Of a stretch of DNA of 64,000 nt, positions 39,101-56,044 are shown one piece after another (position 1 is the first letter of the stretch; the number at the start of each line of letters is the position of its first letter). The stretch is from the NCBI GenBank assembly GCA_937894935.1, contig CALAYC010000215.1, positions 1,021 through 65,020 of the forward strand, in the 5' to 3' direction. The stretch is from an uncultured Verrucomicrobiota bacterium (lineage in GTDB: Bacteria; Verrucomicrobiota; Verrucomicrobiia; Limisphaerales; JADLHS01). A program made the position numbers and the translations under genes. The notes under the pieces were generated by a model. That model ran no database searches. It saw only the letters and a list, made by a program, of their open reading frames with translations, and was not told the origin of the DNA.

Positions 39101-40790
39101 TCTGGCTGACGCTTCAGCTTATTCCACCACAGCGCAAGCGACCACGACGCCGTTGCCGAGCAGTCTCACGTGGCGCGGCGGTGCGGCGGCGAATGCGTGG
39201 GATATCGGTGGCGCATTAAATTGGTTCGATGGTGCGAACATCGTGGTTTACAGCGACGGCGCGAATGTAAGGTTCGATCAATCCGGCTCGAACAATACAC
39301 CGGTTTTGTTGAATGCCACGTTGCAGCCGGGTTCGGTGACGGTGGATGCCAATAAGAATTACACTTTTAATACAAGCGGGAACGGCTCGATCGCCGGTGC
39401 GATGACGTTGACGAAACAGGGTAGCGGCACGTTGTTCATGAATGTTTCCAACTCTTTCAGTGGTGGCGTGGACATCAACGCGGGAACATTGTCGCTCGGA
39501 AATGTTTTTGGCGCTGGCAGCGGACCGATTCGCCTCAATGGTGGGACGTTGACGTTCGCGATTGGCGGGCAGCAGTTCTATGCCAATCCACTCGTGGTGA
39601 ATGCTGCCAGCACACTGTTATCGCAAGGCGGTAACAACAATGTGGTCAGTGGTTCGTGGAGTGGTAACGCGGGAGCGACGTTGATTATTTCCGCGTCAGG
39701 AAGTCCGGGCGTGTTTTCTGTGGGCGGCAACATGAGCGGTTTCCCGGGCGCGGTGAGTCTGGGAAACAGCAGCGGCACGCTTCGCATCAATAGTGGAAAC
39801 AGCAATGTTTCGTTCGGCAGCGCAAATACCACGTTTGATCTCGGCACGGGCACGGGTTGGCTCGTCAATCGCAACGGTAACATCACGGTGGCGCTCGGTG
39901 CGTTGAGCGGCGGACCGAATACAACGTTATCGGGGCGCTCTTCGGGTTCAGGTGGGGCGGGCAGCACATACGACATCGGCGGGAAGAATCTTTCCACGAC
40001 ATTCAGCGGGCGCATCATCAACGGCAACGATGTCACCAGCATTATCAAATCCGGCACGGGCACGTTGCGATTGGCCGGCACGAACACTTACACCGGCACG
40101 ACCATGATCAACAACGGGACGTTGTTGGTGAATGGCGATTCAGCGGCAGCAACCGGCGCGGTGAATGTTGGCGTCAATGGGCGACTCGGCGGGACAGGCG
40201 TCATTGGCGGGGTTACGACGGTGTTCGGACGATTGCTTCCCGGTGATGGCATCGGAACATTGACCTTCACGCAATCACTTACGCTCAACGCCAGTGCGAT
40301 CGCGCAATTTGAAATCAGCAAAAATCCATTTGGCAACGACAAGGTTGTTGTGGGAGGCACGGTTACTTATGGCGGCACATTGGATGTGTTGAATGCGAGT
40401 GTCGAACTGTTGGAAGCAGGCGATAATTTTCAGTTGTTTGCCGCCGGCAATTATTCCGGGGCTTTTGCGCAGGTTGAATTGCCCGCGTTGGAAGCCGGAT
40501 TGAAATGGGATACCTCGCAGCTCGCAACCAACGGACGAATCTGGATCGTCAGCACTGAACCGCCGGTCGTGAGCAGTGTTGATTTAAGTGGTGGAAGCTT
40601 CCATTTCTCCGGCAGCGGCGGAACGCCGAATTGGACTTACGACGTCGTGACGTCCACCAACCTTGCATTGCCGGTAACCGAATGGACGGTGATTTATACC
40701 GGTCAGTTTGATTCGACTGGCAATTTCAGTGTGACGATTCCAACGGTCGCTCAGGAAGCGCAACGGTATTACGTCGTGCGCAGCCGGTGA
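36192..40790 (+). CDS. Secreted rhamnogalacturonan-lyase-like (PL11 beta-propeller) protein with FN3 and autotransporter-associated beta-strand (PATR) repeats
   Basis: It has a signal peptide at M42 of the ORF. The N-terminus QMERLGRGVVAVRT...YVGWRLLGTD...FNVYRS and DLDGDGEYEIVLKWDP resemble YesW/YesX PL11. An FN3 domain (SNLTAVPVG...YYYRVRG) lies near 38.9 kb, and there are many G-x-L-x-K-x-G-x-G-T-L repeats. Confidence 0.75.
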   Translation: MKRLLIALLLVGSLGISPLTAQMQMERLGRGVVAVRTGTSMAYVGWRLLGTDREDIGFNVYRSSNGGALVQRNTTLITNSCNFVDTAVNFAQSNAYFLQPVVAGITQALSAPFGLAANVPTQQYLNVPLQPPADGVTIDGVPYSYNANDCSAADLDGDGEYEIVLKWDPTNSKDNSQSGFTGNVFLDAYKLNGTLLWRIDLGPNIRAGAHYTQFIVYDLDGDGRAELACKTAPGTRDGLGAYVDGNAAFTTYTNSGGYILSGPEYFTIFDGLTGAKLANTNYLPGRGNVSDWGDNYGNRVDRFLAAVAYLDGVRPSVVMCRGYYTRAALVAWDWRDGQLTQRWTFDTGHSGGPWANYKGQGAHSLTVGDVDADGKDEIVYGACTIDDNGTGLYTTGLGHGDALHLSDMDPDRPGLEVWMIHESPSQYGPYGLDCHDARTGEIIFGVDGQNSDVGRGIAMDINPNFRGFEMWGSRGGLMNVRGTQISSTKPGPQNFACYWDADLLRELLDGTTISKWNFVSSSTSTLLSPGGISSNNGTKSTPALAADLFGDWREEVIWRTSDNQNLRIYTTTIVATNRLVTLMHDPQYRVAIAWQNVAYNQPPHPGYYIGPGMYRAPVAPISDADLVWRGGGANIWEDNGAVNWRTNGVWKGNNPAVPFVAGRSVLFDLTGSNHTSITLNGTLTPAQVTVHTAKDYVFAGTGLLDGAMSLRKAGPGRLTVNTTNHFTGATVVSGGAMFVNGALGGSAVTVERRGTPEGPSQFGGSGYLGNGLVVENGCRLTIGPGTNATGTLSVAGDVSLLGVLCQFDLSDDPSGTIKASDRLVIQGNLTLSGTNTIEIRTLDGHLEPGVYPLMTYTGSLNGGLTNLALSGNFIQEVTLTNAPGLIALIAMIPPAPPVAPSNLTAVPVGAFQINLSWQDNATNENAYLIERSLDHVSFSQIAVTAANETTYVDNGLTPDTTYYYRVRGTNLADASAYSTTAQATTTPLPSSLTWRGGAAANAWDIGGALNWFDGANIVVYSDGANVRFDQSGSNNTPVLLNATLQPGSVTVDANKNYTFNTSGNGSIAGAMTLTKQGSGTLFMNVSNSFSGGVDINAGTLSLGNVFGAGSGPIRLNGGTLTFAIGGQQFYANPLVVNAASTLLSQGGNNNVVSGSWSGNAGATLIISASGSPGVFSVGGNMSGFPGAVSLGNSSGTLRINSGNSNVSFGSANTTFDLGTGTGWLVNRNGNITVALGALSGGPNTTLSGRSSGSGGAGSTYDIGGKNLSTTFSGRIINGNDVTSIIKSGTGTLRLAGTNTYTGTTMINNGTLLVNGDSAAATGAVNVGVNGRLGGTGVIGGVTTVFGRLLPGDGIGTLTFTQSLTLNASAIAQFEISKNPFGNDKVVVGGTVTYGGTLDVLNASVELLEAGDNFQLFAAGNYSGAFAQVELPALEAGLKWDTSQLATNGRIWIVSTEPPVVSSVDLSGGSFHFSGSGGTPNWTYDVVTSTNLALPVTEWTVIYTGQFDSTGNFSVTIPTVAQEAQRYYVVRSR

Positions 40791-40847
40791 ACTGGCGGAA
40801 ATTAGAACCTCAGCATTGGATTCAGTTTTTCCAACGCGTCGTTTCCG

Positions 40848-41750
40848 TCAGATATTCTTCGTGACATCGCCGCATAAGCGCACGAATTCTGATTCAACCA
40901 GCGAAAGATTTTTCCCGCGCAAATAGAGAAAGCCCCATTCGCGCCGCAGTTTGCGGCGGCCGAGCGGCATCGCGACGAGTGAGCCTTCTTTCAATTCGGC
41001 GCGCGCGATCCACGTGGCCAGCACGCTGACGCCGAGGTTGAGTTTCACGAGCTGTTTGATGGTTTCGATACTGCCGAGTTCCATCGTGGCATTGAGCGTA
41101 ATGCCTTCTTCGCGAAAGAAACTTTCCACCGCGCGGAACGTCTGACTTGCGCGGCTGTAGAGAATGAAATTCTGACGTGCAATTTCGGGGCGCGCTACGC
41201 CGCCGGCTTCGACCCACGAATGTTGCGGTGCGACGATGAACATGAGTTCGTCGTCGAACAACGGCTGAAACTCGAGGGCAGGCTCGCGTTGGGGGCGAAG
41301 AGCGAGCGCGATATCAATGCGCTGTTCGCGCACGGCTTCGGCGAGGGCAGGGGAGTCGCCGGGCTCAAGCGTGATGCGACATTTGGGATGCGTCTGTTTG
41401 AAGTTGCGCAGCACCTGCGGCAACAGGTGTTGGCACGCGGAAACGCTCGCCCCGATGCGGAGGCGTGTTTCGCCCCATTTGCCGAGTTTGTCGAGCGACG
41501 CGCGGGCGGCGGTCATGTCCGCGATAATTTTTTCCGCGTGGCGGAGGAGTTGTTCGCCTTCGAGTGTGAGCGTGGTGCGTTTGCCGATGCGATTGAGCAG
41601 GCGGCAACCGAGTTCGTTTTCCAGCGCGCGCATCGAATGGCTGACGGCGGATTGAGTGATGAAAACTTCCTTGGCGGTGGCGGTAAAGCTGCCGGTTCGC
41701 GCCAGCGAAACAAAGGTCCGTAATTGTTTACTATCCAGTAAATCGTTCAT
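40848..41750 (-). CDS. LysR-family transcriptional regulator (paralogue 1)
   Basis: 300 aa with a wHTH (LRTFVSLARTGSFTATAKEVFITQSAVSHSM) and a LysR effector domain. Confidence 0.9.
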   Translation of the reverse strand: MNDLLDSKQLRTFVSLARTGSFTATAKEVFITQSAVSHSMRALENELGCRLLNRIGKRTTLTLEGEQLLRHAEKIIADMTAARASLDKLGKWGETRLRIGASVSACQHLLPQVLRNFKQTHPKCRITLEPGDSPALAEAVREQRIDIALALRPQREPALEFQPLFDDELMFIVAPQHSWVEAGGVARPEIARQNFILYSRASQTFRAVESFFREEGITLNATMELGSIETIKQLVKLNLGVSVLATWIARAELKEGSLVAMPLGRRKLRREWGFLYLRGKNLSLVESEFVRLCGDVTKNI

Positions 41751-41896
41751 GAATGAAAATCGGGTTTCGAGCGCGGGGAGCCGGGCTCGCCGCGCTCAGG
41801 CGAGCAATCTTCAGCATTAAAAACACCAACTTGCGGAGTTTGATGAAAATCATTCACGCCAGCGGTCGGCGGTGCGGAGAATGAGCGCGAGAACAA

Positions 41897-42820
41897 TCAG
41901 ACCAGCTCGGTTTTCATGGTGAATGAATTGCATGCAGATTTACATAATCCGATAAAGGTTTCTTCGGCGAGACTGAGCCGTTTGCCGCGCCATTGAAGAA
42001 TGCCCCAACGACGTTGCAGTTTGCGGCGACCCAGCGGTAACGCCACGAGCGAACCGTCTTCAATTTCCTTCCGCGCAATCCAAGGCGCGAGAATGCTCAC
42101 GCCAAGCCCCAGTTTTACGAGTTCCTTCGTCGCCTCCATGCTGCCGAGTTCGATCACGGTGTTGAGAACCATCTGTTCCTGGCGGAAATAATCCTGCACG
42201 AGGCGGAAAGTGACGCTGGTTTTGCTGTAAAGAATGTAGTTCATGCGCGGAATTTCACTGCGCTCCACACGACCGGCCTTCGCCCATGGATGCATTGCGC
42301 CGACGATGAATTGCAGTTCGTCAGTGAACAGATCGTGCGCTTCCAATTGCGGATCGTTCCCCGGATCAAGGCACATCGCGAGGTCCACGCGATGATTCAA
42401 CAGGACGTTCACCAGTTCGGGGGTATCGCCGGGTTCAATGCTGATGCTGTGATCGGGAAAACTCTCTTTGAATTCGCGGAGAACGGTTGGCAACAGATGC
42501 TGACACGCGGTGGTGCTCACGCCGAGGCGCAAGCGGCCTTGCCCCCATTTGCCGAGTTGGCCGAGCGAAACACGCGCGCTCTCCATTTCATGAAGAATTT
42601 TTGCCGCGTGCTGTAAGAACTGTTCGCCTGCCTGAGTGAGCACGACTTTTTTGCCCAATCTGTCCAAAAGCCGACAGCCGATATCAGTCTCCAGCGCTTT
42701 GATGGAATGGCTGACACCGGATTGCGTGAGATGAAGCTCACGTGCGGTCTGCGTAAAACTTCCCGTGCGCGCCAACACGCAAAACGCGCGAACCTGCCGA
42801 CTGTCCAGTGGAGCATTCAT
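41897..42820 (-). CDS. LysR-family transcriptional regulator (paralogue 2), divergent from the nitrate operon
   Basis: It is colinear and clearly similar by eye to the 40848-41750 product. The start is trimmed to MNAPLDSRQ (42820). Confidence 0.9.
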   Translation of the reverse strand: MNAPLDSRQVRAFCVLARTGSFTQTARELHLTQSGVSHSIKALETDIGCRLLDRLGKKVVLTQAGEQFLQHAAKILHEMESARVSLGQLGKWGQGRLRLGVSTTACQHLLPTVLREFKESFPDHSISIEPGDTPELVNVLLNHRVDLAMCLDPGNDPQLEAHDLFTDELQFIVGAMHPWAKAGRVERSEIPRMNYILYSKTSVTFRLVQDYFRQEQMVLNTVIELGSMEATKELVKLGLGVSILAPWIARKEIEDGSLVALPLGRRKLQRRWGILQWRGKRLSLAEETFIGLCKSACNSFTMKTELV

Positions 42821-42822
42821 AA

Positions 42823-42837
42823 ATGAGCGGCAGTCAT
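42823..42837. promoter_or_regulatory. Candidate LysR box (ATGA-N7-TCAT, T-N11-A)
   Basis: atgagcggcagtcat lies immediately upstream of the LysR start, in the 138-bp divergent region facing the nitrate operon. Confidence 0.25.
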
Positions 42838-42958
42838 GGCTGCCATTGGTGCAACTCGGAGCATTCATTACGCCACGCACTACCGGTTGGCATCTGCGCC
42901 GCTAAAGAACCGCGCCGAGGGCCAAACCCGCCGTCACTGAAAAAAAGAAATTCACTTG

Positions 42959-44050
42959 ATGACTTTTGCGAGAGCCAACCGAATGATGCGACTGGGATTC
43001 GTGCCGCTGACCGACTGCGCGCCACTCGTCATGGCGCAGGAATTAGGACTGTTCAAAAAATACGGCTTGCAGGTCGCGCTGAGTCGCGAACTCGGTTGGG
43101 CCACGATTCGGGATAAAGTCATTCACGGTGAACTCGAAGCCGCGCATGCCGTCGCCGGAATGCCTGTGGCTGCAACGCTCGGATTGAATTCCATCGCCTG
43201 CGAATGTCTTACCGCGCTGGTGCTTAATCTTCACGGCAATGCCATCACGCTCTCGGCGGATTTGTGGAATCGCGGTGTGCGCGATGGCAAATCATTGCGC
43301 GCAGAAATTCAACGCACGCGCGGTCAGAAGGTTTTTACGATCGGTGTCGTTTACTCATTTTCGTCGCATCACTATCTGTTGCGCAACTGGCTCACTGCGG
43401 CAGGCATTCGACCGGATCAGGATGTGCGAATCGTCATTGTTCCGCCGGCGCAGATGGTGACAAATCTCAAAGCCGGTCATCTTGATGGGTTCTGCGTGGG
43501 GGAACCGTGGAACTCGTTGGCTGTGCGTTCCGGTGAAGGCTGCGTGGTTGCAGTGAGCGCGGAACTGGACCCGTTGCATCCGGAGAAAATTTTGATGGTG
43601 CGACGCGAGTTCGCGGAGAAGCGCGCGCAGGAACACATCGCTTTGATTGCGGCGTTGTTGGGAGCCTGCGCCTATTGCGATCAACCGGAGAATCACGCAG
43701 AGATAATTTCCATTCTGGCGCGACCCGAGTATGTGAACGTTTCCGAAGATGTGTTGCGGTACGGATTAACCGGTCCGTTTGCGCTGACGAAGAAAGAAGC
43801 ACGCAATATTTCGGATTTCTGCATTTTCCATCGGCATGACGCCAACGAACCCTCGGCCGATAAAGCGGGTTGGGTGATGCGCAATCTGCGCACCAGCGGT
43901 CTTGTCAGAGACCCCGGCCAACTCAGCGCTGCGTTGGGGCGTCGCATTTTTCGACCGGACATTTTCACGCAAGCCAATGCGCTGCGTCTTTCAACTCAAA
44001 CTCCCGCCGGAAAGGAAAACACCAATGAAACCAAAGTCATCTCCTGTTAA
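42959..44050 (+). CDS. Leaderless (cytoplasmic) NrtA/NasS-like nitrate/nitrite-binding protein
   Basis: 363 aa. [30 protein letters not shown]...GELEAAH...[10 protein letters not shown] parallels the periplasmic NrtA encoded next ([29 protein letters not shown]...GELDGAH...[10 protein letters not shown]). It has no signal peptide. Confidence 0.7.
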
Positions 44051-45398
44051 CTCCGTTACCCGAGTTTTAATTGTGCGGCTTCTCGTGATGGCCTTTTGTG
44101 TCGCAGCATTGTTGCTTTCTATTCTTTCCGCGCCCGCCGCGCCGAAGCTGGAAAAAACCGATCTGAAATTCGGTTTCATCAAACTCACTGATTGCGTGCC
44201 GATCATCATCGCGAAGGAGTTGGAATACTTCGAGGACGAAGGGCTTTACGTAACGGTGGAGGCGCAGTCGAATTGGAAAATTCTGCTCGACCGCGTCATC
44301 AGCGGTGAACTCGATGGCGCGCACATGCTCGCCGGGCAACCGATTGCGGCGACTATCGGATTCGGCACGAAAGCGCACGTGATTACGGCGTTCAGCATGG
44401 ACCTCAATGGCAACGGCATCACGCTCGGCAACGCCATCTGGGAGCAGATGAAAGAGATGAATCCGACGTTGAATCAAGAGCCGATCGAACGTCCGCTCAA
44501 AGCTGATTTACTCAAGCCGGTTGTGCAAAAACTCAAAGCTGAAGGCACGCCGATGAAGATGGGCATGGTGTTTCCGGTTTCCACGCACAATTACGAACTG
44601 CGTTATTGGCTCGCGGCGGGCGGTATTGTGCCGGGGTACTACACTGCAACCGACACGACGGGCACGAAGGACGCCGATGTGTTGATTTCGGTGACGCCGC
44701 CGCCGCAAATGCCGGCGACGCTCGCGCAAGGGACGATTCAAGGTTACTGCGTCGGTGAACCGTGGAATCAACAAGCGGTAATCAAAGGCATCGGCGTTGC
44801 TGCGATTACCGATCTCGAAATCTGGAAGAATAATCCGGAAAAAGTTTTTGGCGTGACGGCGGATTGGGCGGCGAAAAATCCGAACACGCACATTGCCGTG
44901 ATCAAAGCGTTGATTCGCGCGGCGAAGTGGTTGGATGCGTCGCCGGAGAATCGCATGAAGGCGTGCGAGATTTTGTCCAAACCGGAATACGTCGGTGCGG
45001 ACAAGCAGGTCATCGCAAACAGCATGACCGGAACGTGGGAATACTACAAAGGTGACAAACGTCCGATGCCCGATTTCAACGTCTTCTTCCGCTACTACGC
45101 GACGTATCCGTTTTACAGCGATTGCATCTGGTATCTCACACAAATGCGCCGTTGGGGACAGATCACCGAAGCGAAATCCGACGACTGGTATTTCGAAACT
45201 GCGAAGCAGGTTTACAAACCGGAGATCTACATGCAGGCCGCTCAAGCGCTGATCAAAGAGGGCAAACTCAAAGCCGACGAAGTGCCGCAAACCGATGGCT
45301 TTAAAGCGCCGACTGCGGAGTTCATTGATGGCATCGAATACGACGGCACAAAGCCCAACGACTATCTGAAAAAGTTTCCCATCGGTTTGAAAGACTGA
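44025..45398 (+). CDS. nrtA: Nitrate ABC transporter substrate-binding protein
   Basis: 457 aa from the ATG at 44025, preceded by an RBS-like ggaaaggaaaa. It has a signal/anchor helix and NrtA/CmpA-family motifs, followed by nrtB and two ATPase genes. Confidence 0.85.
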
Positions 45399-45404
45399 TT
45401 CACC

Positions 45405-46421
45405 ATGAGCACTTTGATCAAAACCTGCGAAAGCGTTGGGCTGAACTGGTTCGTTCCGTTCCTGCGCCTGGCCAAGCGCGACAATCCGAATGAACAACTC
45501 CGCCAGATTCTGTTGACGATCGGCGTGCCGATTATCGCAGTTCTGATTTTTCTCGGTGCGTGGAGTTGGGTCGCCAGAAACGTGAAAGTGAGCTTCGGTT
45601 CGCTGCCTGGTCCGGCGGCGGTCTGGGTGGAAGCGAAAAATCTCTGGGCCGACCACCTCGCAGAACGAAAAAAGGAAGCGGATTTTTACAAACGCCAGGC
45701 AGAACGCAAAAAGACCTTTCTGGCGGAAAATCCGACGGGCGAATGGAAAGAACGCAAATACGCAGGTAAACCCACTTATCTCGACCAGATTTTCACCAGT
45801 CTGAGAACCGTGTTCACGGGCTTTGTTATCGCGGCAATCATCGCGGTGCCGCTCGGCATCCTTTGCGGATTGAGCAAAGTCTTCAACACCGCGATGAATC
45901 CGTTCATTCAGATTTTCAAACCGGTGTCGCCGCTCGCGTGGTTGCCCATTGTGATGATCATGGTGAGCGCGCTCTACAATCCGAAAGAGCCGATGTTTGA
46001 AAAATCGTTCATCAGCTCAGCGTTCACGGTGGCGTTGTGTTCGCTCTGGCCGGCGCTCATCAACACAGCGTTGGGTGTGGCTTCAATTGACAATGATTAC
46101 CTCAATGTCGCGCGCGTGTTGAAACTCGGTTGGTGGAAGAAAGTGCGTAAGATTGTGATTCCCTCCGCGCTGCCGCTGATTTTCACCGGGCTGCGACTTT
46201 CGTTGGGCGTCGGCTGGATGGTGCTCATCGCCGCAGAAATGCTGGCGCAGAATCCAGGGCTCGGAAAATTCGTATGGGACATGTTCCAGAACGGCAGCAG
46301 CCAGACGCTCGCGCAAATCATGGTCGCGGTGTTCACCATCGGTTTCATCGGCTTCTTTCTCGATCGCACGATGATGGTCTTGCAGAAGGCTGTGAGCTTC
46401 GACGGCGCCGCAATCCGGTAA
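45405..46421 (+). CDS. nrtB: Nitrate ABC transporter permease
   Basis: 338 aa. It has the long cytoplasmic loop and permease core typical of NrtB ([34 protein letters not shown]). Confidence 0.9.
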
Positions 46422-46446
46422 AGCAATTCACCTGACAATAAATCCC

Positions 46447-47358
46447 GTGGCATTTCTCGAACTCAACAAAGTCAGTAAAGGATACGGCTTTGGCGCGAAG
46501 CGGACCGAGGTGTTGCACGACATCAATCTCAGTATCGCCGAGGGTGAGTTTGTGGCGATTGTCGGCTATTCCGGCGCGGGCAAAACCACGCTGATGTCGC
46601 TTATCGCGGGCTTGCAACGACCGGACGAGGGTTCGGTGACGTTGCGCGGCGAAACGGTGACCGAGCCATCGCCTGATCGCGCCATCGTTTTTCAGAATTA
46701 TTCGCTGCTTCCGTGGTTGAGTGTATACGAAAACATCGCGCTCGCGGTGGATGAAGTTTTCTCCCATTGGCCAGCGGAGAAACGTCGCGAACACGTGGAA
46801 AAATACATCGCGATGGTGAATCTCACGCCGGCGCGCGATAAAAAGCCGCGCGAACTTTCCGGCGGCATGCGGCAGCGCGTCAGTGTTGCGCGCGCGTTGG
46901 CGATGGATCCGAAAATTCTGTTACTGGATGAACCGCTTTCCGCTCTGGATGCGCTAACCCGTGCGGTATTGCAGGATGAGATTGCCCGCATCTGGGCGGA
47001 ATCCAAAAAGACTGTCGTGCTCATCACCAACGACGTAGATGAAGGCATCATTGTTGCCGACCGCATCATTCCGCTGAGTGCCGGCCCGCGCGCTACGTTG
47101 GGGCCGTCGGTGCAAGTGGACATTGAACGTCCACGGGATCGCAAGGCGTTGAATCACGATCCGCGCTTTAAAGCGATCCGCAAAGAAGTGATCGGTTATT
47201 TGCTGGGCGATGGTGGACACAAAAAAACTTCCGTGACGCGCAAGCTCACGTTGCCGGACATCGAGCCGGAGGATTTGAGCGTTTCGCGGTTTCATTTTGG
47301 CAGACCTCCCGCCCGGCGGAAGAGCGAACAAAAGCAGGAAACCGTCGAAACCGTATGA
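46447..47358 (+). CDS. nrtC: Nitrate ABC transporter ATP-binding protein (NrtC-type ATPase with linker tail but no NrtA-like C-domain)
   Basis: It has a GTG start, Walker [10 protein letters not shown], the signature LSGGMRQR and a ~45 aa tail after the ATPase core. Confidence 0.85.
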
Positions 47359-47398
47359 GCTGGCTGCACAGAGGACCAGCCAGAATAAACCAACTCAC

Positions 47399-48202
47399 AT
47401 GAGCCACTACGTTGAAATCGCAAATCTGACGAAGATTTATCCGACGCCCAAAGGCCCGGCGGTCATCGTCAAAGATTTCAATCTCAACATCGCGAAAGGC
47501 GAGTTCGTCACGCTTATCGGTCATTCAGGTTGTGGCAAATCGACGGTGCTTTCGATGTTGGCCGGACTGAACGACATCACGTCTGGCGGCATCATTCTCG
47601 CCGGGAAGGAACTCAGTGGGCCTGGGCCGGATCGCGGAATCGTGTTTCAATCGCCTTGTTTGTTGCCGTGGCTGACGGCGTTTGAAAACGTGATGCTCGG
47701 CGTGGACCAGGTTTTCTTCACTGCGAGCAAAGCGGAACGCCGCGCGATTGCGGAATATTATCTCACGGTAGTCGGCCTGGGGGATGCGATGCGCAAGCGC
47801 GCGACGGAACTCTCGCAAGGCATGCGTCAACGCGTCGGCATCGCCCGGGCGTTTGCGCTCAAACCCAAGATGCTGCTGCTCGATGAGCCGTTCGGCATGT
47901 TGGACGCGCTCACGCGCATCGAACTCCAGCAGGTGTTACTCGAAGTGTGGGGCCGCACGCAACTCACCGCGCTCATGGTCACGCATGATGTGGATGAAGC
48001 GATTTTTCTGTCCGATCGCGTGGTGATGATGACCAACGGTCCGGCGGCGGAAGTCGGTGATGTGCTGGAAGTGAAATTTCCGCGTCCGCGCAATCGTGCC
48101 GCATTGTTGGAGGATTCGCAGTACTACACCTGTCGCGAACACCTGATTGAATTTCTCAACGACCGCGCGCAGCGCAAACCCGGTCTCGCTCACGCTGCCT
48201 GA
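47399..48202 (+). CDS. nrtD: Nitrate ABC transporter ATP-binding protein
   Basis: The start is trimmed to [10 protein letters not shown]. It has Walker [10 protein letters not shown] and the signature LSQGMRQR. Confidence 0.9.
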
Positions 48203-48203
48203 T

Positions 48204-50231
48204 ATGTTTTACCGCGCCAGACTTGCTCCGACTGGGTTGGATTCCGGAAACGGAAAACAACACGACGCCCGAAAACGCGCTGTTTCCAAAAACGTGAAAA
48301 CAGTCGTGGTCATCGGCAACGGCATGGCGAGTTACAAGTTGTGTGAGCGTCTCGTCGCGCTGGACGACGACGGAGAATTTCGCCTCGTGGTGTTCGGGGA
48401 AGAAAAGCAACCGGCTTACGACCGTGTGCATCTGACCTCGTTCTTCGAACAACCTGTTGCAGAGAAACTGTTGCTCGCGCCGTTGTCCTGGTATGCGGAA
48501 CAGAACATCGAATTGCATCTGGGCGACCCGGTGGTGGCGGTGGAGCGCGAATCGAAAAAGGTTCGCACCGCGAGCGGAAAAGAGGTTGCTTACAATTATC
48601 TGATTTTTGCGACCGGTTCGCGTGCGTTCATGCCGCCATTGCCGGGCCAGGAATTATCCGGCGTTTTTCTGTATCGCACGATTGAAGATTTACAGGGCAT
48701 TCGTGAACACGCGCAAAACTGCAAACGCGCGGCAGTTTTGGGCGGTGGATTGCTGGGAGTCGAAGCCGCGAAAGCTTTACGGGATCTCGGACTTGAAGCC
48801 TGGATTGTCGAGCGCGGTGTTTCGTTGCTCGCGCGTCAACTTGATCCGCAAGCCGGTGCGTTATTGCAAACGCACGTTGAAAAGCTCGGCATTCATGTTT
48901 GCACGCAGCGCGAAACGCAAAGCATTGAAGCACTTGGTGAAGATCGGTTGCTGCAATTCAACACCGGCGAATGTCTGCGCGTGCAATTGGTCGTCGTGGC
49001 AGCGGGGATTCGACCGCGCGATGAACTGGCGACGGCATGCGGACTCGAAATCGGCGCGCGCGGTGGCATTTGCATCAACGACGCGCTGCAAACTTCTGAT
49101 CCGAATATTTATGCGATTGGCGAGTGCGCGTGTCATCGCCACGTGGTTTACGGACTGGCCGCCCCCGGTTATCAGATGGCGGATGTGCTGGCGGAAAATC
49201 TCGCTGGCAAACGTCGCAAATACACCGGGAGCGACCAGTCCACGCGACTCAAACTCAGCGGCATCGAAGTCGCCACGCTCGGCGATTTTCAGGCGAACGG
49301 TGATGAATCGGTCAGTTGGCAGGGGAACGGAGCGAGTCGGCGCTTGGTTCTGGAGAAAGGTCGGCTGGTCGGGGCGACGGCAGTTGGCGATTGGCCCGAA
49401 GCCGTGCGAATCCAAGAACTCGCCGAACGCCGGGCGCGTGTCTGGCGTTGGCAGAAAATTCGTTTTGCGCGCACGGGCAAACTATGGAAAGCCGAGACCG
49501 CGCCGCATGTCAGTCAATGGCCGGCGAATGCGCTTGTTTGCAACTGCGTTGGTGTGCGACGCGGCATGTTGAGCGCGGCGTGTGCGGAAGGTTGTGCGAC
49601 GGTGGAAGCGTTGGCGAAGCGGACCGGAGCGTCCACGGTTTGCGGCTCGTGCAAACCGTTGCTCGCGCAACTCGTCGGTGCGCCTGCGTGGTTGAATGAA
49701 CTTCCCGGACTCAAACCGCTGGCGATTGCGTGTTCCATCGCGCTGATTTTCGCGCTGGCCATTTTCTTCGCGCCGCCGATTGCATTCGCAGATTCCGTGC
49801 AGGGAAAACTTCATTCCGTGAATGCGTTGTGGCGCGATGGATTCTGGAAACAGATTACCGGATTCACACTCATCGGGCTGGTGTTGATCAGTCTCGGCCT
49901 GTCACTGCGCAAGCGCATCAAGCGATTTACGTTTGGCGAATTCGGTTACTGGCGCGCGATTCATGCGGTATTGGGAACGATTTCGCTTATCGCGCTGGTG
50001 ACGCATACGGGGTTTCGCCTCGGCAATAATTTCAATTTTGTGTTGATGCTGAATTTTCTCGCGCTCGTGTTGGTGGGAGCACTCGCAGGCATGGTGACGG
50101 CGCTGGAACGGCGGTTGAGCCCCGTGGCGGCGAAACGATTGCGGGCATTCTGGACCGGAACTCACATCGCATTGGGGTGGCCGATGCCGGTGCTCGTCGT
50201 GTGGCACGTGATAGTTGCGTATTACTTTTGA
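48204..50231 (+). CDS. Fusion protein: NirB-type NAD(P)H/FAD reductase half with a BFD-like [2Fe-2S] domain, fused to a C-terminal 5-TM bis-His (ferric-reductase-like) membrane domain
   Basis: By eye it is colinear with the E. coli NirB N-terminal half (VVVIGNGMAS, YRTIEDL, GGGLLGVEAA, SDPNIYAIGECA, GLAAPGYQMA). It has a BFD-type CNC...CGSC motif at about 49539-49655. The TM domain (49710-50228) has H-x13-H in two helices. Confidence 0.75.
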   Translation: MFYRARLAPTGLDSGNGKQHDARKRAVSKNVKTVVVIGNGMASYKLCERLVALDDDGEFRLVVFGEEKQPAYDRVHLTSFFEQPVAEKLLLAPLSWYAEQNIELHLGDPVVAVERESKKVRTASGKEVAYNYLIFATGSRAFMPPLPGQELSGVFLYRTIEDLQGIREHAQNCKRAAVLGGGLLGVEAAKALRDLGLEAWIVERGVSLLARQLDPQAGALLQTHVEKLGIHVCTQRETQSIEALGEDRLLQFNTGECLRVQLVVVAAGIRPRDELATACGLEIGARGGICINDALQTSDPNIYAIGECACHRHVVYGLAAPGYQMADVLAENLAGKRRKYTGSDQSTRLKLSGIEVATLGDFQANGDESVSWQGNGASRRLVLEKGRLVGATAVGDWPEAVRIQELAERRARVWRWQKIRFARTGKLWKAETAPHVSQWPANALVCNCVGVRRGMLSAACAEGCATVEALAKRTGASTVCGSCKPLLAQLVGAPAWLNELPGLKPLAIACSIALIFALAIFFAPPIAFADSVQGKLHSVNALWRDGFWKQITGFTLIGLVLISLGLSLRKRIKRFTFGEFGYWRAIHAVLGTISLIALVTHTGFRLGNNFNFVLMLNFLALVLVGALAGMVTALERRLSPVAAKRLRAFWTGTHIALGWPMPVLVVWHVIVAYYF

Positions 50232-51610
50232 TGGCTCAGAAGCACAAATGGCTCTGGATTCTCTGGAGCGTCGTAACTTTGGCAATGAGTGGCATGGCAA
50301 CCTATATCCTGACGGGGTCGGACCGGCGTTTTCTTTTGCCGGGTGAAACCACCAGCGGCCATTACCAGATTGAACTCGCCTGCAGCGCGTGTCACACACC
50401 ATGGCTCGGGGTCAAAGAAGACGCGTGTTACAAATGTCACGAAGCGGAGTTGAAAGCCGCGAACGATTCGCATCCGAAAAGCAAATTTATCGATCCGCGA
50501 AATGCCGATCGCTTGCAACTCATCAAAGCGGACAACTGCGTTGCGTGTCATCGCGAACATGTGCCGCATCAGACGGGGGCGATGGGCGTGACGGTGCCGA
50601 TTGATTATTGCGCGCATTGTCATCAACAAACGCTGACTGATCGACCGAGTCACAAGAATTTCAAATTCGATTCCTGCGCCACGGCGGGCTGCCACAACTA
50701 TCACGACAACTCGGCGCTTTATGAAAATTTTCTGCTCAAACATGCCCAAGAGCCGGCGGTGAAAGATTCGGGGACGGTGGCGCAACGACAATTGCTCGCG
50801 TTCCTGACGGCCGATGGCGTGATGAAACCGCGTCCCGCGCTCACGGCGGAACAACAGGACGCGCCTGCCAATGTGACTGCGAACGCGAAGGTGAAAGAGG
50901 ATTGGTTGACGACCGCCCACGCCAAGGCGGGCGTGAATTGCACCGATTGTCACAACATCGAGGATGCGGCGACGCGTGAGAAACGTTGGTCGGATAAGCT
51001 GGCTCCCAATGCCTGCACGCGGTGTCACAAGGAAGAGGTGAACGGTTTTCTCGCCGGAAAACACGGGATGCGGCTCGCGTTGGACCTGCCGCCGATGACT
51101 CCGGCGCAGTCACGACTGCCGATGAAAGCGGACGCGGCGCATCACGAGTTGGGTTGTGTGAGTTGTCATGGCGCGCATGAATTCAACACGCGCACGGCGG
51201 CGGTTGACGCGTGTCTTTCCTGTCACAACGACGAACACAGTCTGGCCTACAAAGACTCCAAACATTTTGCGCTTTGGTTCAACGAAACGACGGGTGAAGC
51301 GCCAGCGGGCAGCGGAGTGAGTTGCGCCACCTGTCATCTGCCGCGCGAGAAAATTGAAAACGCGGGCCATGTCATGGTGCGCGTGCAGCACAATCAGAAT
51401 GCGAATTTGCGTCCCAACGAAAAAATGATCCGCAGCGTCTGTATGGGTTGCCACGGGCTGGAATTCAGTCTCGATGCGCTCGCAGATCCGGCGTTGATCT
51501 GCACCAATTTCATCGGTCGCCCCGCCCGGCATGTCGAGAGCATTGACCTGGCGGTAAAGCGACAGATGGAAATTCAAAAACAAAAATCCAAACCCCGTAC
51601 TGAAAAATGA
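50231..51610 (+). CDS. Membrane-anchored multihaem cytochrome c (10 CXXCH plus 1 CX4CH)
   Basis: 459 aa with an N-terminal TM (WLWILWSVVTLAMSGMATYIL). Motifs are CSACH, CYKCH, CVACH, CAHCH, CATAGCH, CTDCH, CTRCH, CVSCH, CLSCH, CATCH and CMGCH. It has a TGATG overlap with the upstream gene. Confidence 0.85.
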   Translation: MAQKHKWLWILWSVVTLAMSGMATYILTGSDRRFLLPGETTSGHYQIELACSACHTPWLGVKEDACYKCHEAELKAANDSHPKSKFIDPRNADRLQLIKADNCVACHREHVPHQTGAMGVTVPIDYCAHCHQQTLTDRPSHKNFKFDSCATAGCHNYHDNSALYENFLLKHAQEPAVKDSGTVAQRQLLAFLTADGVMKPRPALTAEQQDAPANVTANAKVKEDWLTTAHAKAGVNCTDCHNIEDAATREKRWSDKLAPNACTRCHKEEVNGFLAGKHGMRLALDLPPMTPAQSRLPMKADAAHHELGCVSCHGAHEFNTRTAAVDACLSCHNDEHSLAYKDSKHFALWFNETTGEAPAGSGVSCATCHLPREKIENAGHVMVRVQHNQNANLRPNEKMIRSVCMGCHGLEFSLDALADPALICTNFIGRPARHVESIDLAVKRQMEIQKQKSKPRTEK

Positions 51611-52209
51611 AAGCGAAACCCCTGAAACCTCTTCTACTCGTCGGCACATTGATGGCGACGATTGTCAGCGCCACTGTTCTGACCGGCTGTAATAAAGCGG
51701 AAGCTGCTAAAGCGTCCGGATTCACGCCGCAACAGATGGCGGACAATCTGTTCATCGTGATGTCGTCCGATCGTGCGGTTTATACCAAACAGGTGGTCAA
51801 TCGTTTGCAGAACGACGAAAAAATCATCAAGGCCACTGAGCACTGGAAAGACGAGAAAACCTTGCCGTTGCCGGCCCAGATGTTCCGGATGGGCGCGGAA
51901 ACGGTCGCAGAAAAGAAACCTGGATTCAGCTACGCGTTGTTGTCGCTCTGGCCCATCAACAAACAAAACGAACCGAAAACCGAAGCTGAGAAGAAGGGAT
52001 TGCAGTTTGTCGCGGACAGCAAAGGGGCGACGAATTTTTACGCGGAGGAAGTTCTCGGCGGGAAAAAATATTTCACAGCGGTTTATGCAGACGTCGCGGT
52101 TTCTCCCGCGTGCGTGAAGTGCCACAACGATCACGATGACTCGCCGAAAACGGATTTCGAGTTAAACGACGTGATGGGCGGCGTGGTTATCCGTTTGCCG
52201 TTGGATTGA
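51607..52209 (+). CDS. DUF3365 (Tll0287-like) haem-c lipoprotein
   Basis: It has a lipobox VLTGC and a C-terminal ACVKCHNDHDDSPKTDFELNDVMGGVVIRLPL, which is characteristic of DUF3365. It has an ATGA overlap with the cytochrome gene. Confidence 0.75.
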   Translation: MKAKPLKPLLLVGTLMATIVSATVLTGCNKAEAAKASGFTPQQMADNLFIVMSSDRAVYTKQVVNRLQNDEKIIKATEHWKDEKTLPLPAQMFRMGAETVAEKKPGFSYALLSLWPINKQNEPKTEAEKKGLQFVADSKGATNFYAEEVLGGKKYFTAVYADVAVSPACVKCHNDHDDSPKTDFELNDVMGGVVIRLPLD

Positions 52210-52245
52210 TTCAAGTCAAAGCAAGCAACTCAGAAAGGAAATAAC

Positions 52246-52662
52246 ATGACGCCACAACAAGTGACTCTTGTACAGACCAGTTGGGAAAAATGCGTGCCGA
52301 TTGCGGATCAGGCGGCGGCGCTCTTTTACGGCAAATTGTTTGAACTCGATCCCGAACTGAAACCGCTTTTCAAAACGGATTTGAAAGAGCAGGGTAAAAA
52401 ATTGATGACCATGATCACCATGGTGGTGCGCGGGTTGAACGATCTCGGTCGGCTCGTGCCCGCGGTCGAAGATCTCGGTCGCCGCCATGTGGGTTACGGG
52501 GTGAAGGACGCGCATTATGCGACAGTCGGTACCGCGTTGCTCTGGACTTTGGAGCAGGGACTGGGACCGGAATTTACGCCGGAAGTCAAAGAAGCCTGGA
52601 GTACCGCTTACGGCGTTTTGGCGACGACGATGCAAAAGGCTGCCGCCACAACTCCCGCTTGA
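52246..52662 (+). CDS. Single-domain (3-on-3) bacterial globin
   Basis: 138 aa with no signal peptide. VQTSWEKCVPIADQAAALFYGKLFELDPELKPLF...LGRRHVGYGVKDAHYATVGTALLWTLE contains the proximal-His region HVGYGV. Confidence 0.8.
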   Translation: MTPQQVTLVQTSWEKCVPIADQAAALFYGKLFELDPELKPLFKTDLKEQGKKLMTMITMVVRGLNDLGRLVPAVEDLGRRHVGYGVKDAHYATVGTALLWTLEQGLGPEFTPEVKEAWSTAYGVLATTMQKAAATTPA

Positions 52663-52702
52663 AGTCTCTTTCTTAACTGCAAACGAACGAATCCCATACC
52701 GA

Positions 52703-54043
52703 ATGAAAATTAAAACTCACCACTGGAGACTTCTTACCGGCAGCGCGCTCGTACTCGCTGCGACTGCGTCCGTTTATGCGCAGGACAAATCGATGATCAC
52801 CGACACGAACGGTTGTCCAATGACGACGTTTTTCACTGACAAAATCCCGGACGTGATCGCGAAAGGGAAATTCTCGCTGAACGTGCGAGCGCGTTACGAG
52901 AACGTCGATCAGGAAGGTGGCACGCCGCCCGCGCACGCGGAAACGATTCGCACGCGCTTCGGTTACACGACCGCGCCGCTTTACGGTTTTCAGGCGATGA
53001 TTGAAGGCGAAAACGTCACCGCCGCCAACAAGGACACTTACGCGGCGGGCGCGGGATCGCCCGTGCCGCGCGATGTTATCGCTGATCCGACGGTAACCGA
53101 GATGAATCAGGCGTGGCTCAGCTACACTTACAGCGCGAGCAACTTTATGGCATCGGTCAAGGGCGGACGACAGGTTTTTGTGTTGGATAATCACCGGTTC
53201 ATCGGTCACGTCGGTTGGCGACAGAATCAGCAGACGTTCGACGCCGTGGCGACGAAAGTGACGCCGCTCAAAGGGATCGATTTGAATTATGCCTATCTGT
53301 GGAAGGTACATCGTATTTTTGGCGACGACACGTCACTCGGAGCCGGCACGAGCGATTTCAATTCCGCTTCGCATGTGTTCAACGGCAGTTACACAGTGTC
53401 GCCGTTGCTCAAAGTCACGGGCTATGCGTACGTGCTCGATTTGAAAAACGAGCGTCCGCTGGCCGGCGTGGCGAATAATTCCTGCGCGACCTATGGCGGT
53501 TTTCTCACGGGCACATGGACGTTCGATCAAGAACACAAAGGCACGCTGAGTTATCGCGGCGAATTCGCGTGGCAGACGGATTACGCAGACAGCACGTTGG
53601 ATTACGAAACGGAGTATTACCTCGGTGAACTCAAAGCTACGTATGACCGATTCACCGTGAGCGCGGGATACGAAGTGTTGGGCAGCGACGAAAACGGCGG
53701 GGCAGGCGGTGGCGTAACTTCGTTCCGGACGCCGCTGGCGACACTGCACGCGTTCAATGGTTGGGCAGACGTCTTTTTGACCACGCCGGCTGCGGGGCTG
53801 AAGGACTTTTATGCGTCGGCAGGAGTGACGTTGCCGGGGAACATTCCGGTGAATTTCGTTTACCACAAATTCGATTCGGAAACCGGCAATACCGACTTCG
53901 GTCACGAATACGACCTGGTCGTGTCGCGTAAGTTCGGCAAGAACTGGACTGTGCTCGCCAAATACGCGAAGTACGACGGGAAAGACGCGCCGTTCGCTTT
54001 CGACAAAGAAGTGTTCTGGGCGGAAATCGAGTTCAACTTTTAG
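52703..54043 (+). CDS. Outer-membrane beta-barrel porin (alginate-export/AlgE-like family, tentative)
   Basis: It has a signal peptide (LVLAATASVYAQ), alternating beta-strand pattern, HRFIGHVGWRQNQQTFDAV and a terminal aromatic (...EIEFNF). Confidence 0.6.
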   Translation: MKIKTHHWRLLTGSALVLAATASVYAQDKSMITDTNGCPMTTFFTDKIPDVIAKGKFSLNVRARYENVDQEGGTPPAHAETIRTRFGYTTAPLYGFQAMIEGENVTAANKDTYAAGAGSPVPRDVIADPTVTEMNQAWLSYTYSASNFMASVKGGRQVFVLDNHRFIGHVGWRQNQQTFDAVATKVTPLKGIDLNYAYLWKVHRIFGDDTSLGAGTSDFNSASHVFNGSYTVSPLLKVTGYAYVLDLKNERPLAGVANNSCATYGGFLTGTWTFDQEHKGTLSYRGEFAWQTDYADSTLDYETEYYLGELKATYDRFTVSAGYEVLGSDENGGAGGGVTSFRTPLATLHAFNGWADVFLTTPAAGLKDFYASAGVTLPGNIPVNFVYHKFDSETGNTDFGHEYDLVVSRKFGKNWTVLAKYAKYDGKDAPFAFDKEVFWAEIEFNF

Positions 54044-54105: not shown

Positions 54106-54385
54106 AAAGCAACCGCAACGCTTTGCTGACTCCGCAACTTTGGTCGCGATGGACAATTTTCGCCAAGTCAGGAGGGAGACGTTTCAAAACGCCAACTTTG
54201 CGAGTGATCGCAATTCTTCTCAATTCCCTTGGTTTGCTTGAGAAAACACCACAAACGCAGGCGTTTTGAGTCACTCGCCCGGCTCATGGTAAACATGAGA
54301 ACTATTCAGTTGGTTCATGGGTTGGTGGCATCGGCGGCGCTCAAATGAATCGCGGGAAACTCCAGCGGGTTTTCCGCCGAACCAA

Positions 54386-56044
54386 ATGACATCCGCTCCT
54401 GACAACGCTCCGCGCAACCGGCCTCCCGCCGAATCGGCGCGTACGTTGATTGATGAACTGTTGGCGGAGCAGCAACGGCTCACGGCGGTGGAGCGGTTTT
54501 CCCGTTTGCATGAAACCAACGGGCTTCCGGCGCAGGCGCGTTACTACCGCGATTTAATTCCGCAGACCAAACCGCAGCCCGGGCAGCAATACGCATTCGA
54601 AGTGGATCTCGATCGATGCAGTGGCTGCAAGGCGTGCGTCACGGCGTGTCATTCGCTCAATGGACTCGAAGAAACGGAAACGTGGCGCAACGTGGGATTA
54701 TTGATCAGCGACGATTGGCGCGCGCCGCAACAGCAGACGATTACCACCGCGTGTCATCACTGCGTCGAACCGGGTTGTCTCGAAGGTTGTCCGGTGTTGG
54801 CTTACGACAAAGACCCGGTCACCGGCATCGTGCGGCATCTCGATGATCAATGCATCGGTTGCCAATACTGCGTGATGAAGTGTCCGTACGAAGTGCCGCA
54901 GTATTCGAAACGGCTCGGCATTGTGCGCAAATGCGACATGTGCGCAAATCGCCTCGCGGTCGGTGAAGCACCGGCTTGTGTGCAGGCCTGTCCGCATGAA
55001 GCGATCAAAATTACGTTAGTCGAAACGGCTGCGGTCCGGGAACGCTATCGCGCGACTCAAGATTGCGGAGAAATCAAGGAGAAGGAAAGAGCGCGGAACA
55101 ATCATTCCGCGAATCCGTTTTTGCCCGCGTCGCCGTCACCGCAGATTACGCTGCCGACCACGCGTTACAAATCCACTCGACCGCTGCCATCGACCTTGCT
55201 CGCGGGTGATCACGCGCATGTTGCTCCGGCGACATCGCATTTGCCGTTGGTGTTCATGTTGGTGCTGACGCAATTGGCGGTTGGCGTGAGCCTCGCGACG
55301 TTGTTTGCGTCGCTATCGCAATGGTTGGCCGTTACTGCTGCAATCGTCAGTGCCGTTGCATTGGGCATTGCTTCTTTGCATTTGGGCAAGCCGTTGAAAG
55401 CGTGGCGCGCCTTTCTTGGTTGGCGCACGTCATGGTTCAGTCGCGAAGTTATCGCCTTCGGTGCTTATGTGCCGCTGGCGATGTTGACGGCGGTAACTTT
55501 CTTTGTTGCACCGCTGACTTCGTTGCAAAAGCCACTGATGCTGCTGACCGTCGCAACGGGATTGGTTGGCGTTGCATGTTCGGCGATGATTTATGTGGAT
55601 ACGCGTCGGGAATTCTGGTGCGGATCGCAAAGCTTCGGAAAATTCTTTGGCACGACATTGCTCCTCGGTGCGGCGACAGCGTTGTTAGTCACAGATTCGA
55701 CAAGTTCGATACCGGTTGTGCTGCTGTTTTTTACCACGGCTGCAAAGTTGGGACTGGAACATCGCATTTTCCGGCATCTGGTGGATAAAGACACGTTGAC
55801 GTTGTCGCCATTGAACAAAACCGCACGGCTGCTAACAGATGAACTTGGACTGGCGTCGCGGAGTCGCATCTTCTGCGGAATGCTGGGCGGACTGATTCTG
55901 CCGTTGGGGCTGGTGATGTCGGAGCCGAATCGCGTGTTGGCGATCGTGGTGTTCGGGCTGTGTCTCGTGGGGGAATTGCTGGAGCGCTATCTGTTTTTCA
56001 CGGCAGTTGCGCCCGCCAAAATGCCGGGAGGTTTTGTCGCATGA
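54386..56044 (+). CDS. Fusion of a DmsB/NrfC-type four-cluster FeS protein with a DmsC-like 8-TM membrane anchor; no TAT signal
   Basis: It has four Cys groups ([44 protein letters not shown]...CVQACP). Eight hydrophobic helices follow, with a DmsC-like [14 protein letters not shown]. The start is uncertain (54317 or 54386). Confidence 0.75.

Follow-up and report, generated by a model that had tools for sequence, protein, structure and literature searches.

In a 64,000-nucleotide stretch of DNA from an uncultured Verrucomicrobiota bacterium (hereafter the window), the gene at 42959-44050 on the forward strand stands at the head of an nrtABCD operon and encodes a leaderless member of the NrtA family, a putative cytoplasmic nitrate/nitrite-binding protein that is referred to here as the sensor. 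It belongs to a previously undescribed lineage that is confined to Verrucomicrobiota and Planctomycetota. Its gene lies divergent from that of an NtcB/CbbR-like LysR-type regulator, LysR1, and the region between the two genes carries a sigma-54-type promoter element together with a LysR-type box. The reading favoured here, which is possible rather than probable, is that the protein is a NasS-like nitrate sensor that signals through LysR1. An earlier note on the same DNA had proposed that the protein either inhibits the transporter in trans or signals to a pair of LysR regulators, and both proposals keep support, with neither singled out by the evidence.

The sensor comprises 363 amino acids when counted from the ATG, or 364 when counted from the TTG at 42956, and it matches the Pfam family NMT1_2 (PF13379) with an E-value of 5.8e-78. 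It is colinear with the NrtA encoded by the next gene, to which it is 33% identical over ~360 residues (E=9e-73). In the sensor the conserved fold begins at residues 11-13 (RLGFVPLTD), whereas the NrtA paralogue starts with a typical 46-residue signal sequence that has a hydrophobic core. Furthermore, an in-frame TGA at 42938-42940 lies six codons 5' of the sensor start, and therefore no N-terminal export signal can extend the protein. Neither a signal peptide nor a lipoprotein signal of the NrtA/CmpA type is present in the sensor; it is the gene after it that encodes the true NrtA. With the sensor stop codon at 44048-44050 and the nrtA ATG at 44025, the two genes overlap by 26 nt. The leaderless, NrtA-colinear protein and this overlap had both been described correctly in the earlier note, and the sequence supports assignment of the sensor as a cytoplasmic NrtA homologue of the kind represented by NasS and the NrtC regulatory domain. 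An AlphaFold2 model computed from a 25-sequence alignment (A1) reached a mean predicted local distance difference test (pLDDT) score of 60 and a predicted template modelling (pTM) score of 0.48, and was judged too poor for a fold search; the fold assignment is based on sequence homology to solved regulatory domains.

The best solved relatives of the sensor are the C-terminal regulatory domains (CRDs) of NrtC (8w9m, matched through 8w9m_C at 2e-74) and of CmpC (9uai/9u9z, matched through 9uai_E at 1e-65), while periplasmic NrtA (2g29) is matched at only 6e-40. Identity to the best solved CRD is ~45% across ~330 residues. The CRDs of cyanobacterial NrtC and CmpC bind nitrate (PMC10945777, PMC13287603). 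In the CmpC CRD, the nitrate ligands are Trp319, His408, Gly452 and Lys481 (PMC13287603), and nitrate specificity is set by a lysine, which is Lys480 in Anabaena NrtC and Lys269 in NrtA (PMC13287603, PMC10945777). Residues W47, H137, G181 and K210 of the sensor align with the four CmpC ligands, and Lys480 of NrtC corresponds to the position of K210. All four residues are invariant across 25 close homologues of the sensor. Among 57 sequences from Verrucomicrobiota and Planctomycetota (abbreviated PVC here; the set of 57 loci or sequences includes that of the window), W47 is conserved in 56, H137 in 53, G181 in 55 and K210 in all 57. From this alignment we strongly infer that the sensor binds nitrate, and by analogy with NasS (PMC3795266) it probably binds nitrite as well.

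A word-indexed protein search with the sensor returned more than 5,400 family matches. Its closest homologues are from Verrucomicrobiota, and the best 120 of these matches are stand-alone proteins of 288-441 amino acids (most of them 350-410) with identities of 63% or more; where source names are available, they are mostly Verrucomicrobiota. Representatives at 50% identity are mostly leaderless proteins of 340-400 amino acids, with few ATPase fusions. A scan of species-representative genomes with the sensor gave 80 loci, which were annotated by open reading frame (ORF) calling together with phmmer and hidden Markov model (HMM) searches against labelled references. Four classes of genomic context can be distinguished. 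In the PVC set, the sensor stands alone with a LysR gene divergent from it; in Proteobacteria and Binatia, it stands alone beside a gene for the ANTAR protein NasT (15 of 16 loci); in Cyanobacteria, the domain is fused to the NrtC ATPase (6 loci, one of which is labelled as a Sphingobacterium metagenome-assembled genome); and the fourth class is made up of true periplasmic NrtA.

The earlier note had proposed a phylogeny of NasS, the NrtC domain and NrtA, and the neighbour-joining tree that was built (97 sequences, 345 columns, 100 bootstraps; its deep nodes are without resolution) places the 57 PVC sensors in a separate, monophyletic clade with a bootstrap of 84. The fused regulatory domains form a clade of their own (bootstrap 100), NasS proteins with a linked NasT make up a looser third group, and the PVC clade is neither nested in the fused domains nor their supported sister. 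Pairwise identities of the window sensor are 36-46% with NasS, 37-41% with the fused domains and 28-37% with NrtA. The sensor probably derives from the periplasmic NrtA fold and represents a lineage beside NasS and the NrtC/CmpC regulatory domains. At loci L048 and L054 (Gammaproteobacteria) and L050 (Akkermansiaceae), the gene for a stand-alone sensor follows ATP-binding cassette (ABC) ATPase genes and precedes nirB, a position that is the place of the regulatory domain within fused NrtC; the L050 sensor gene has a sigma-54-like element of its own 40 nt upstream.

LysR1 (41897-42820, reverse strand) contains the Pfam domains HTH_1 and LysR_substrate. Its longest ORF reaches 42880, and a start at 42820 (307 amino acids), which fits both the position of the helix-turn-helix (HTH) domain and the gene calls on identical contigs, is probably the true one. 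The protein is closest to cyanobacterial CbbR-family regulators, NtcB among them, and its best matches in the PDB are 5y2v (9e-37) and NtcB, 8h3v (7.5e-27). A LysR1 orthologue, recognized by scores of 217-684 bits as against ~60 bits for unrelated LysR proteins, lies divergent from the sensor gene at a distance of less than 400 nt in 47 of the 57 PVC loci. Three further loci have either a partial LysR gene at the contig edge (two) or a LysR gene one gene away (one), and two others are without upstream sequence, which brings the linkage to ~50 of 55 informative loci. For the converse test, metagenome contigs were scanned with the LysR1 alignment, and a leaderless sensor was found to adjoin LysR1 divergently in 51 of the 63 LysR1-centred loci with at least 400 nt of upstream sequence.

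Apart from LysR1, no gene is consistently linked to the sensor across the PVC loci. A paralogue, LysR2 (40848-41750, reverse strand), is 58% identical to LysR1 and occurs only in the closest relatives (the window, L001, L002 and L004/5). The two adjacent LysR genes listed in the earlier note (40848-41750 and, to the end of the longest ORF, 41897-42880, both on the reverse strand) are thus present, but the conserved unit is LysR1 plus sensor and not the LysR pair to which signalling had been ascribed. Elsewhere in the window, the segment 11892-15517 has another, unrelated LysR gene in divergent orientation to genes for an NMT1_2 binding protein, a permease and an ATPase, which resemble a sulfonate/taurine-type ABC system; this binding protein scores just 48 bits against NrtA.

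The promoter of the sensor gene, with its phased LysR box, did not feature in the earlier note and is new in the present analysis. A sigma-54-type -24/-12 element (TGGCATCTGCGCCGCT, 42888-42903, forward strand) has the form TGGCAY-N7-GCT with the exact GG-N10-GC spacing, and implies a transcription start near 42913 and a predicted 5' untranslated region (UTR) of ~46 nt. In 37 of the 57 PVC genome loci, the pattern TGGCAY-N7-GCW is found at a distance of 22-78 nt before the sensor start, against an expectation of 0.014 per 260 nt of these loci, and a sigma-54-type element recurs in 38 of 53 independent metagenome loci. A LysR-type T-N11-A box (ATGAGCGGCAGTCAT, 42823-42837), which forms an ATGA-N7-TCAT dyad and in the window starts 65 bp upstream of the -24 element, is the probable recognition site of LysR1. 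This box is present in 32 of 47 genome loci and in 46 of 53 metagenome loci; among the 37 metagenome loci that have both motifs, 35 show a distance of 64-65 bp from box to -24 element, and the same spacing, read off the table and untallied, is seen in the genome loci.

Abutting the -24 element is a promoter-proximal half-site (GGAGCATTCATTACGCCA, 42858-42875; consensus aagcatt.at...gCca), whose GCCA pairs as a dyad with the TGGC of the -24 element. The arrangement GCCA-N11/12-TGGC occurs in 23 of 47 loci, and the half-site is a candidate LysR activation site. When 70 unique loci are aligned with the -24 element as anchor, all three blocks are visible. Taken by itself, the window holds both promoter motifs only as often as chance predicts, and their support comes solely from positional conservation across loci. 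A direct repeat, GGAGCATTCAT, is present at 42810-42820, where it overlaps the LysR1 start codon, and again 48 bp away at 42858-42868, where it is the promoter-proximal half-site; L002 and L018 likewise have two similar ATTCAT-containing copies. To judge from these motifs, LysR1 almost certainly binds the divergent intergenic region. A sigma-54-like motif on the minus strand and directed toward LysR1 (TGGCGTAATGAATGCT; found by a relaxed pattern in 17 of 47 loci) occupies the same place as the proximal LysR half-site and for that reason is not claimed as an element.

According to the favoured reading, the sensor would pass information on intracellular nitrate to transcription by a switch of partners, with LysR1 in the role that NasT has beside NasS. 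Without nitrate, the sensor would keep LysR1 in a non-activating or promoter-occluding state; nitrate in the cleft of the sensor would release or reposition LysR1; and transcription by sigma-54 RNA polymerase could then begin, with activation by an enhancer-binding protein that responds to nitrogen status, such as NtrC. With the sensor gene inside the operon that it would control, the loop would be self-limiting, with negative feedback as in AmiC-AmiR. Because the promoter is of the sigma-54 type, an enhancer-binding ATPase must also take part, which is probably a general nitrogen regulator; neither an enhancer-binding activator nor rpoN is encoded among the ORFs scanned in the window.

The LysR1-sensor pair is a conserved cassette whatever follows it, the sensor gene being always promoter-proximal, and this conservation supports LysR1 as the output. 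In addition, an ABC-independent route is supported by the retention of the sensor before NarK-only operons and by swaps of NrtA/NrtB. Sensor-NarK operons are found at L003, L029, L065 and L141, and sensor-reductase operons at L060 (Methylacidiphilum) and L061. At none of these loci are there ABC genes within the 6-10 kb of flanking sequence fetched, and the full set of W, H, G and K ligands is kept in all five of their sensors that are included in the alignment (L141 lies outside it). Where NrtA and NrtB are present, two unrelated types of them occur beneath the one sensor clade. Across the PVC loci, similarity of the sensor to that of the window correlates with the corresponding similarity of LysR1 with a Spearman rho of 0.87, compared with 0.64 for NrtC, -0.06 for NrtA and -0.15 for NrtB.

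Several observations weigh against LysR1 as the output partner. The correlation just described could reflect shared vertical descent alone. Moreover, a divergent LysR gene is the default layout, and synteny proves that LysR1 regulates the operon, not that it contacts the sensor. Five PVC sensors (L017, L032, L040, L042 and L050) are without an adjacent LysR gene, and LysR1 orthologues function without a sensor at some loci. At L100 (1750-2090, reverse strand), NarK stands directly behind LysR1, a LysR box and a sigma-54 element, the last two at the 64-bp spacing, and a short ORF (MIKKLQTRKLLRFGLAPSADRAS...) that resembles what is left of a sensor N-terminus after deletion suggests that the sensor was lost recently while the promoter stayed; at L106 LysR1 faces a porin, and at L117 it faces a Fer4_11-DmsC gene, with no sensor. 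No fusion of the sensor to an HTH or LysR domain was seen among 150 family representatives, and ten long representatives scanned for fusions contain solely ABC_tran, with no HTH, LysR or ANTAR domain. The lip residues R43 and E44 are common to NasS, the fused regulatory domains and the PVC clade, and give no pointer to a partner. Finally, a literature search found no LysR-type regulator with a separate binding-protein-like sensor, and we know of none that is under the control of one; the nearest precedent is AtzR with GlnK. A more specific version of the proposal holds that the sensor and LysR1 form a nitrate-sensitive complex, in which, for the first time in a LysR-type regulator, a separate subunit resembling a binding protein would perceive the inducer. 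The complex would work at a sigma-54 promoter, where the phased LysR box, 64 bp from the -24 element, would serve an NtrC-type activator as an architectural or anti-occlusion element switched by the ligand. This version must be regarded as doubtful.

A serious rival, albeit on balance an unlikely one, is that the sensor is a free-standing equivalent of the NrtC/CmpC CRD. It would gate transport by NrtC/NrtD post-translationally in response to intracellular nitrate, docking on the NrtC/NrtD dimer, perhaps via the NrtC tail and perhaps with PII, and the LysR protein would merely regulate the operon. As noted above, the top solved homologues of the sensor are NrtC/CmpC regulatory domains, far ahead of NrtA. 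The genes that follow it on the forward strand encode the periplasmic NrtA (44025-45398), the permease NrtB (45405-46421; TIGR01183 ntrB, E=1e-49), an NrtC-type ATPase of 303 amino acids with no fused regulatory domain (46447-47358; TIGR01184, 301 bits) and NrtD, a second and different nucleotide-binding ATPase subunit (47399-48202; TIGR01184, 321 bits). The window and most of its relatives carry this cyanobacterial-style pair of different ATPases, and in the window and many relatives the sensor is translationally coupled to nrtA.

NrtC of the window consists only of ABC_tran and a tail of ~50 residues, with no NMT1_2 domain, in agreement with the linker-like tail and missing NrtA-like domain that the earlier note had reported. 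The tail (residues ~255-303; TRKL ... RRxP ... ETVE) is conserved and, in an alignment of 28 PVC proteins with 6 fused NrtC proteins, matches the hinge/linker of cyanobacterial NrtC, the hinge being the part that contacts the regulatory domain in CmpC. A detached NrtC domain is further favoured by the fact that fusions in this family are with ATPases only, by the moderate correlation of sensor and NrtC similarities, and by the location of nearly all of the five LysR-free PVC sensors beside ABC transporter genes. Five of the eight domain-to-ATPase contacts of CmpC are also kept in the sensor (R43, E44, D52, Q165 and K171), with the equivalents of R320 and T317 changed to Ala and Leu, respectively. 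The mapping of these contacts was dropped as a discriminator, however, because R43 and E44 are equally conserved in NasS. Also against a detached domain, the equivalents of the PII-contact residues of NrtC, Asn564 and Lys565, are not conserved in the sensor, the tree shows neither supported nesting in the fused domains nor sisterhood to them, the NrtA/NrtB modules have been swapped independently of the sensor, and ligand-intact sensors stand before NarK-only or reductase-only operons, within the flanks fetched.

It is also conceivable, but rather improbable, that the sensor acts on some other partner, such as an NtrC-like sigma-54 activator, PII or the assimilatory nitrate/nitrite reductase, or that it has no partner and is a nitrate buffer or delivery protein. 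A role of this kind would be consistent with the sigma-54-type promoter, which needs an ATPase activator that is not encoded among the ORFs scanned in the window, with the promoter-proximal position of the sensor gene regardless of the genes downstream, and with the existence of both LysR1-only and sensor-only loci. However, LysR1 is the one gene with a consistent link to the sensor, such an arrangement lacks any precedent, and the sequence points to no specific alternative partner.

Far less credible is the view that the sensor is a canonical NasS whose antiterminator NasT is encoded elsewhere in the genome, although some sources label close relatives as "two-component system, oxyanion-binding sensor" and identity to NasT-linked NasS does reach 36-46%. 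An ANTAR HMM was built from three NasT proteins and one NasR and searched against six-frame ORFs of at least 60 amino acids. No ORF in the 64-kb window matched, as the earlier note had stated, whereas the same HMM recovered 15 NasT genes at other loci. ANTAR genes were found at 0 of the 57 PVC loci (within 6-10 kb) and at 0 of 80 LysR1-centred loci, as against 15 of the 16 non-PVC loci (Proteobacteria or Binatia) that have a stand-alone sensor. The description of the protein as one of the NasS or NrtC-domain kind that lacks a NasT partner thus holds for the window and extends to the 57 PVC loci, and the PVC clade lies apart from NasS in the neighbour-joining tree.

Nor was a leader or terminator found that could serve as a target for NasT. 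The predicted 5' UTR of ~46 nt leaves no space for an antitermination leader, and the sensor gene runs into nrtA. An Rfam scan of the window gave no matches, hairpins resembling terminators are as frequent as chance predicts, and consensus scans of 40700-52400 for promoters and terminators gave counts that did not exceed chance. The gaps between sensor gene and nrtA in some relatives were considered as leaders; those of L012 and L013 instead hold an ORF (L012:9154-9993 and L013:3215-3661) with the N-terminus MDYVKPLEVAK...KDLLIRGFLSGALLGFATS, which when judged by eye has the look of a formate/nitrite transporter (NirC-like), and no plus-strand ORF was resolved in L014 and L018.

The remaining reading, an ordinary periplasmic substrate-binding protein with a mis-called start codon and hence the upstream signal peptide that the earlier note had raised, is essentially excluded: gene callers do extend the ORF to 408 amino acids (P0001) on the near-identical Logan contigs L004/L005, which have 6 A at 42940-42946 where the window has 7 and have lost the in-frame stop, but this call is spurious, its 45 added residues (MSGSHGCHWCNSEHSLRHALPVGICAAKEPRRGPNPPSLKKEIHL) being non-hydrophobic and overlapping the LysR box and promoter, while in the window the stop at 42938-42940 prevents extension and hundreds of homologues begin no more than 10-30 residues before the fold.

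Downstream of nrtD, the large nitrate-assimilation cluster that begins with the sensor gene continues with a NirB-N-terminal flavoprotein fused to a membrane domain (48147-50231), a multihaem cytochrome c (50177-51610) and a Tll0287-like protein (51607-52209), followed by an Alginate_exp-type porin (52517-54043), a Fer4_11-DmsC protein (54317-56044), a molybdopterin oxidoreductase (55960-58503), a flavodoxin/FAD/NAD reductase (58601-60475) and a NIR_SIR nitrite/sulfite reductase (60658-62463). The first three of these genes make up an unusual module (48147-52209) between nrtD and the porin gene, and the same module is present on Logan contig L006. Its first gene encodes a protein of 694 amino acids that has the NirB N-terminal flavin/NAD and BFD [2Fe-2S] domains and no sirohaem NIR_SIR domain, and that ends in a multi-helix membrane domain (weak DUF4405); the cytochrome c partner has 477 amino acids. 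The module could provide a membrane electron-transfer route tied to nitrite reduction. The closest relatives with two LysR genes, L001 (18511-20217) and L002 (18030-19742), have between narK and the Fer4_11-DmsC gene of their nitrate cluster a gene for a fusion of a PP2C phosphatase and a Ser-Thr kinase, which the window does not contain.

A second sigma-54-like element (TGGCATCGGCGGCGCT, 54326-54341, forward strand), a single occurrence, stands before the genes for the Fer4_11-DmsC protein, the molybdopterin oxidoreductase, the flavodoxin reductase and the NIR_SIR protein, and a CTCATG-N5-CATGAG dyad lies near it at 54283-54299. This arrangement suggests that 54317-58503 encodes an assimilatory nitrate reductase that is anchored in the membrane and has a LysR/sigma-54 promoter of its own, on which LysR2 may act. 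At L117, a Fer4_11-DmsC gene has a LysR1-like gene divergent from it.

Verrucomicrobiota and Planctomycetota are abundant in soils and waters. The module described here is widespread and has three sequence-defined parts, namely a predicted cytoplasmic nitrate-binding protein, an NtcB-like LysR regulator and a promoter with a phased LysR box and sigma-54 element. If the sensor communicates with the LysR protein, the partner switching of NasS would be extended from RNA-binding to DNA-binding regulators, and the largest family of bacterial regulators would gain a new signal input; a sensor-LysR1 complex, if real, would constitute a third, PVC-wide form of nitrate-specific control beside NasR and NasS-NasT antitermination and cyanobacterial NtcA-NtcB. 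If the sensor acts on the transporter, the cyanobacterial NrtC regulatory domain would be able to work as a separate subunit. The pipeline label "CmpA/NrtA family ABC transporter substrate-binding protein" misleads as to the cellular location of the sensor proteins. No description of a LysR-linked, sigma-54-driven nitrate-sensor arrangement was found in the searchable literature (NasS together with LysR, NasS in Verrucomicrobia, and Methylacidiphilum nitrate transporters).

Comparison with known systems begins with NasS-NasT (Paracoccus denitrificans, Azotobacter, Pseudomonas, Bradyrhizobium; PMC3795266). Like NasS, the sensor is a stand-alone, leaderless NrtA homologue of the ~360-400 amino acid class with all of the nitrate ligands, is encoded with assimilatory nitrate genes and is expected to sense cytoplasmic nitrate or nitrite. 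Unlike NasS, it has neither a nearby ANTAR gene nor a leader RNA, and it falls into a separate clade. Its gene opens the regulated operon and does not belong to a nasTS unit, its conserved neighbour is a LysR-type regulator, and its promoter is of the sigma-54 type.

The CRDs of NrtC and CmpC (8w9m, 9uai/9uak/9u9z; PMC10945777, PMC13287603) provide the best solved match to the sensor and share its four nitrate ligands. As with these domains, the sensor accompanies a two-ATPase NrtC/NrtD transporter and keeps part of the domain-to-ATPase surface. Yet it is unfused, is encoded upstream of nrtA rather than inside nrtC, belongs to a separate clade, lacks conserved PII contacts, and is also found where no ABC transporter is nearby.

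LysR1, for its part, is a relative of NtcB, the nitrite-responsive LysR-type activator of the cyanobacterial nirA-nrtABCD-narB operon (8h3v), and of CbbR, NdhR and CmpR, and is divergent from a nitrate operon with a T-N11-A box. It differs from NtcB in that its target promoter looks sigma-54-dependent and in that the sensor gene is interposed. NtcB acts with NtcA at sigma-70-type promoters and, to our knowledge, has no accessory binding protein.

The organization proposed for the sensor is also like that of AmiC-AmiR in the amidase operon of Pseudomonas aeruginosa (PMC3795266), in which a sensor with a binding-protein fold is encoded in the operon that is regulated. AmiR is an ANTAR antiterminator, however, and not a DNA-binding LysR protein, and AmiC represents a different class of binding protein. 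AmiC controls AmiR by ligand-sensitive complex formation. Taken together, the sensor is set apart from NasS by its clade and by the absence of a nearby NasT and of a leader RNA, and from the NrtC domain in that it is unfused and does not always have ABC transporter genes within the flanks fetched.

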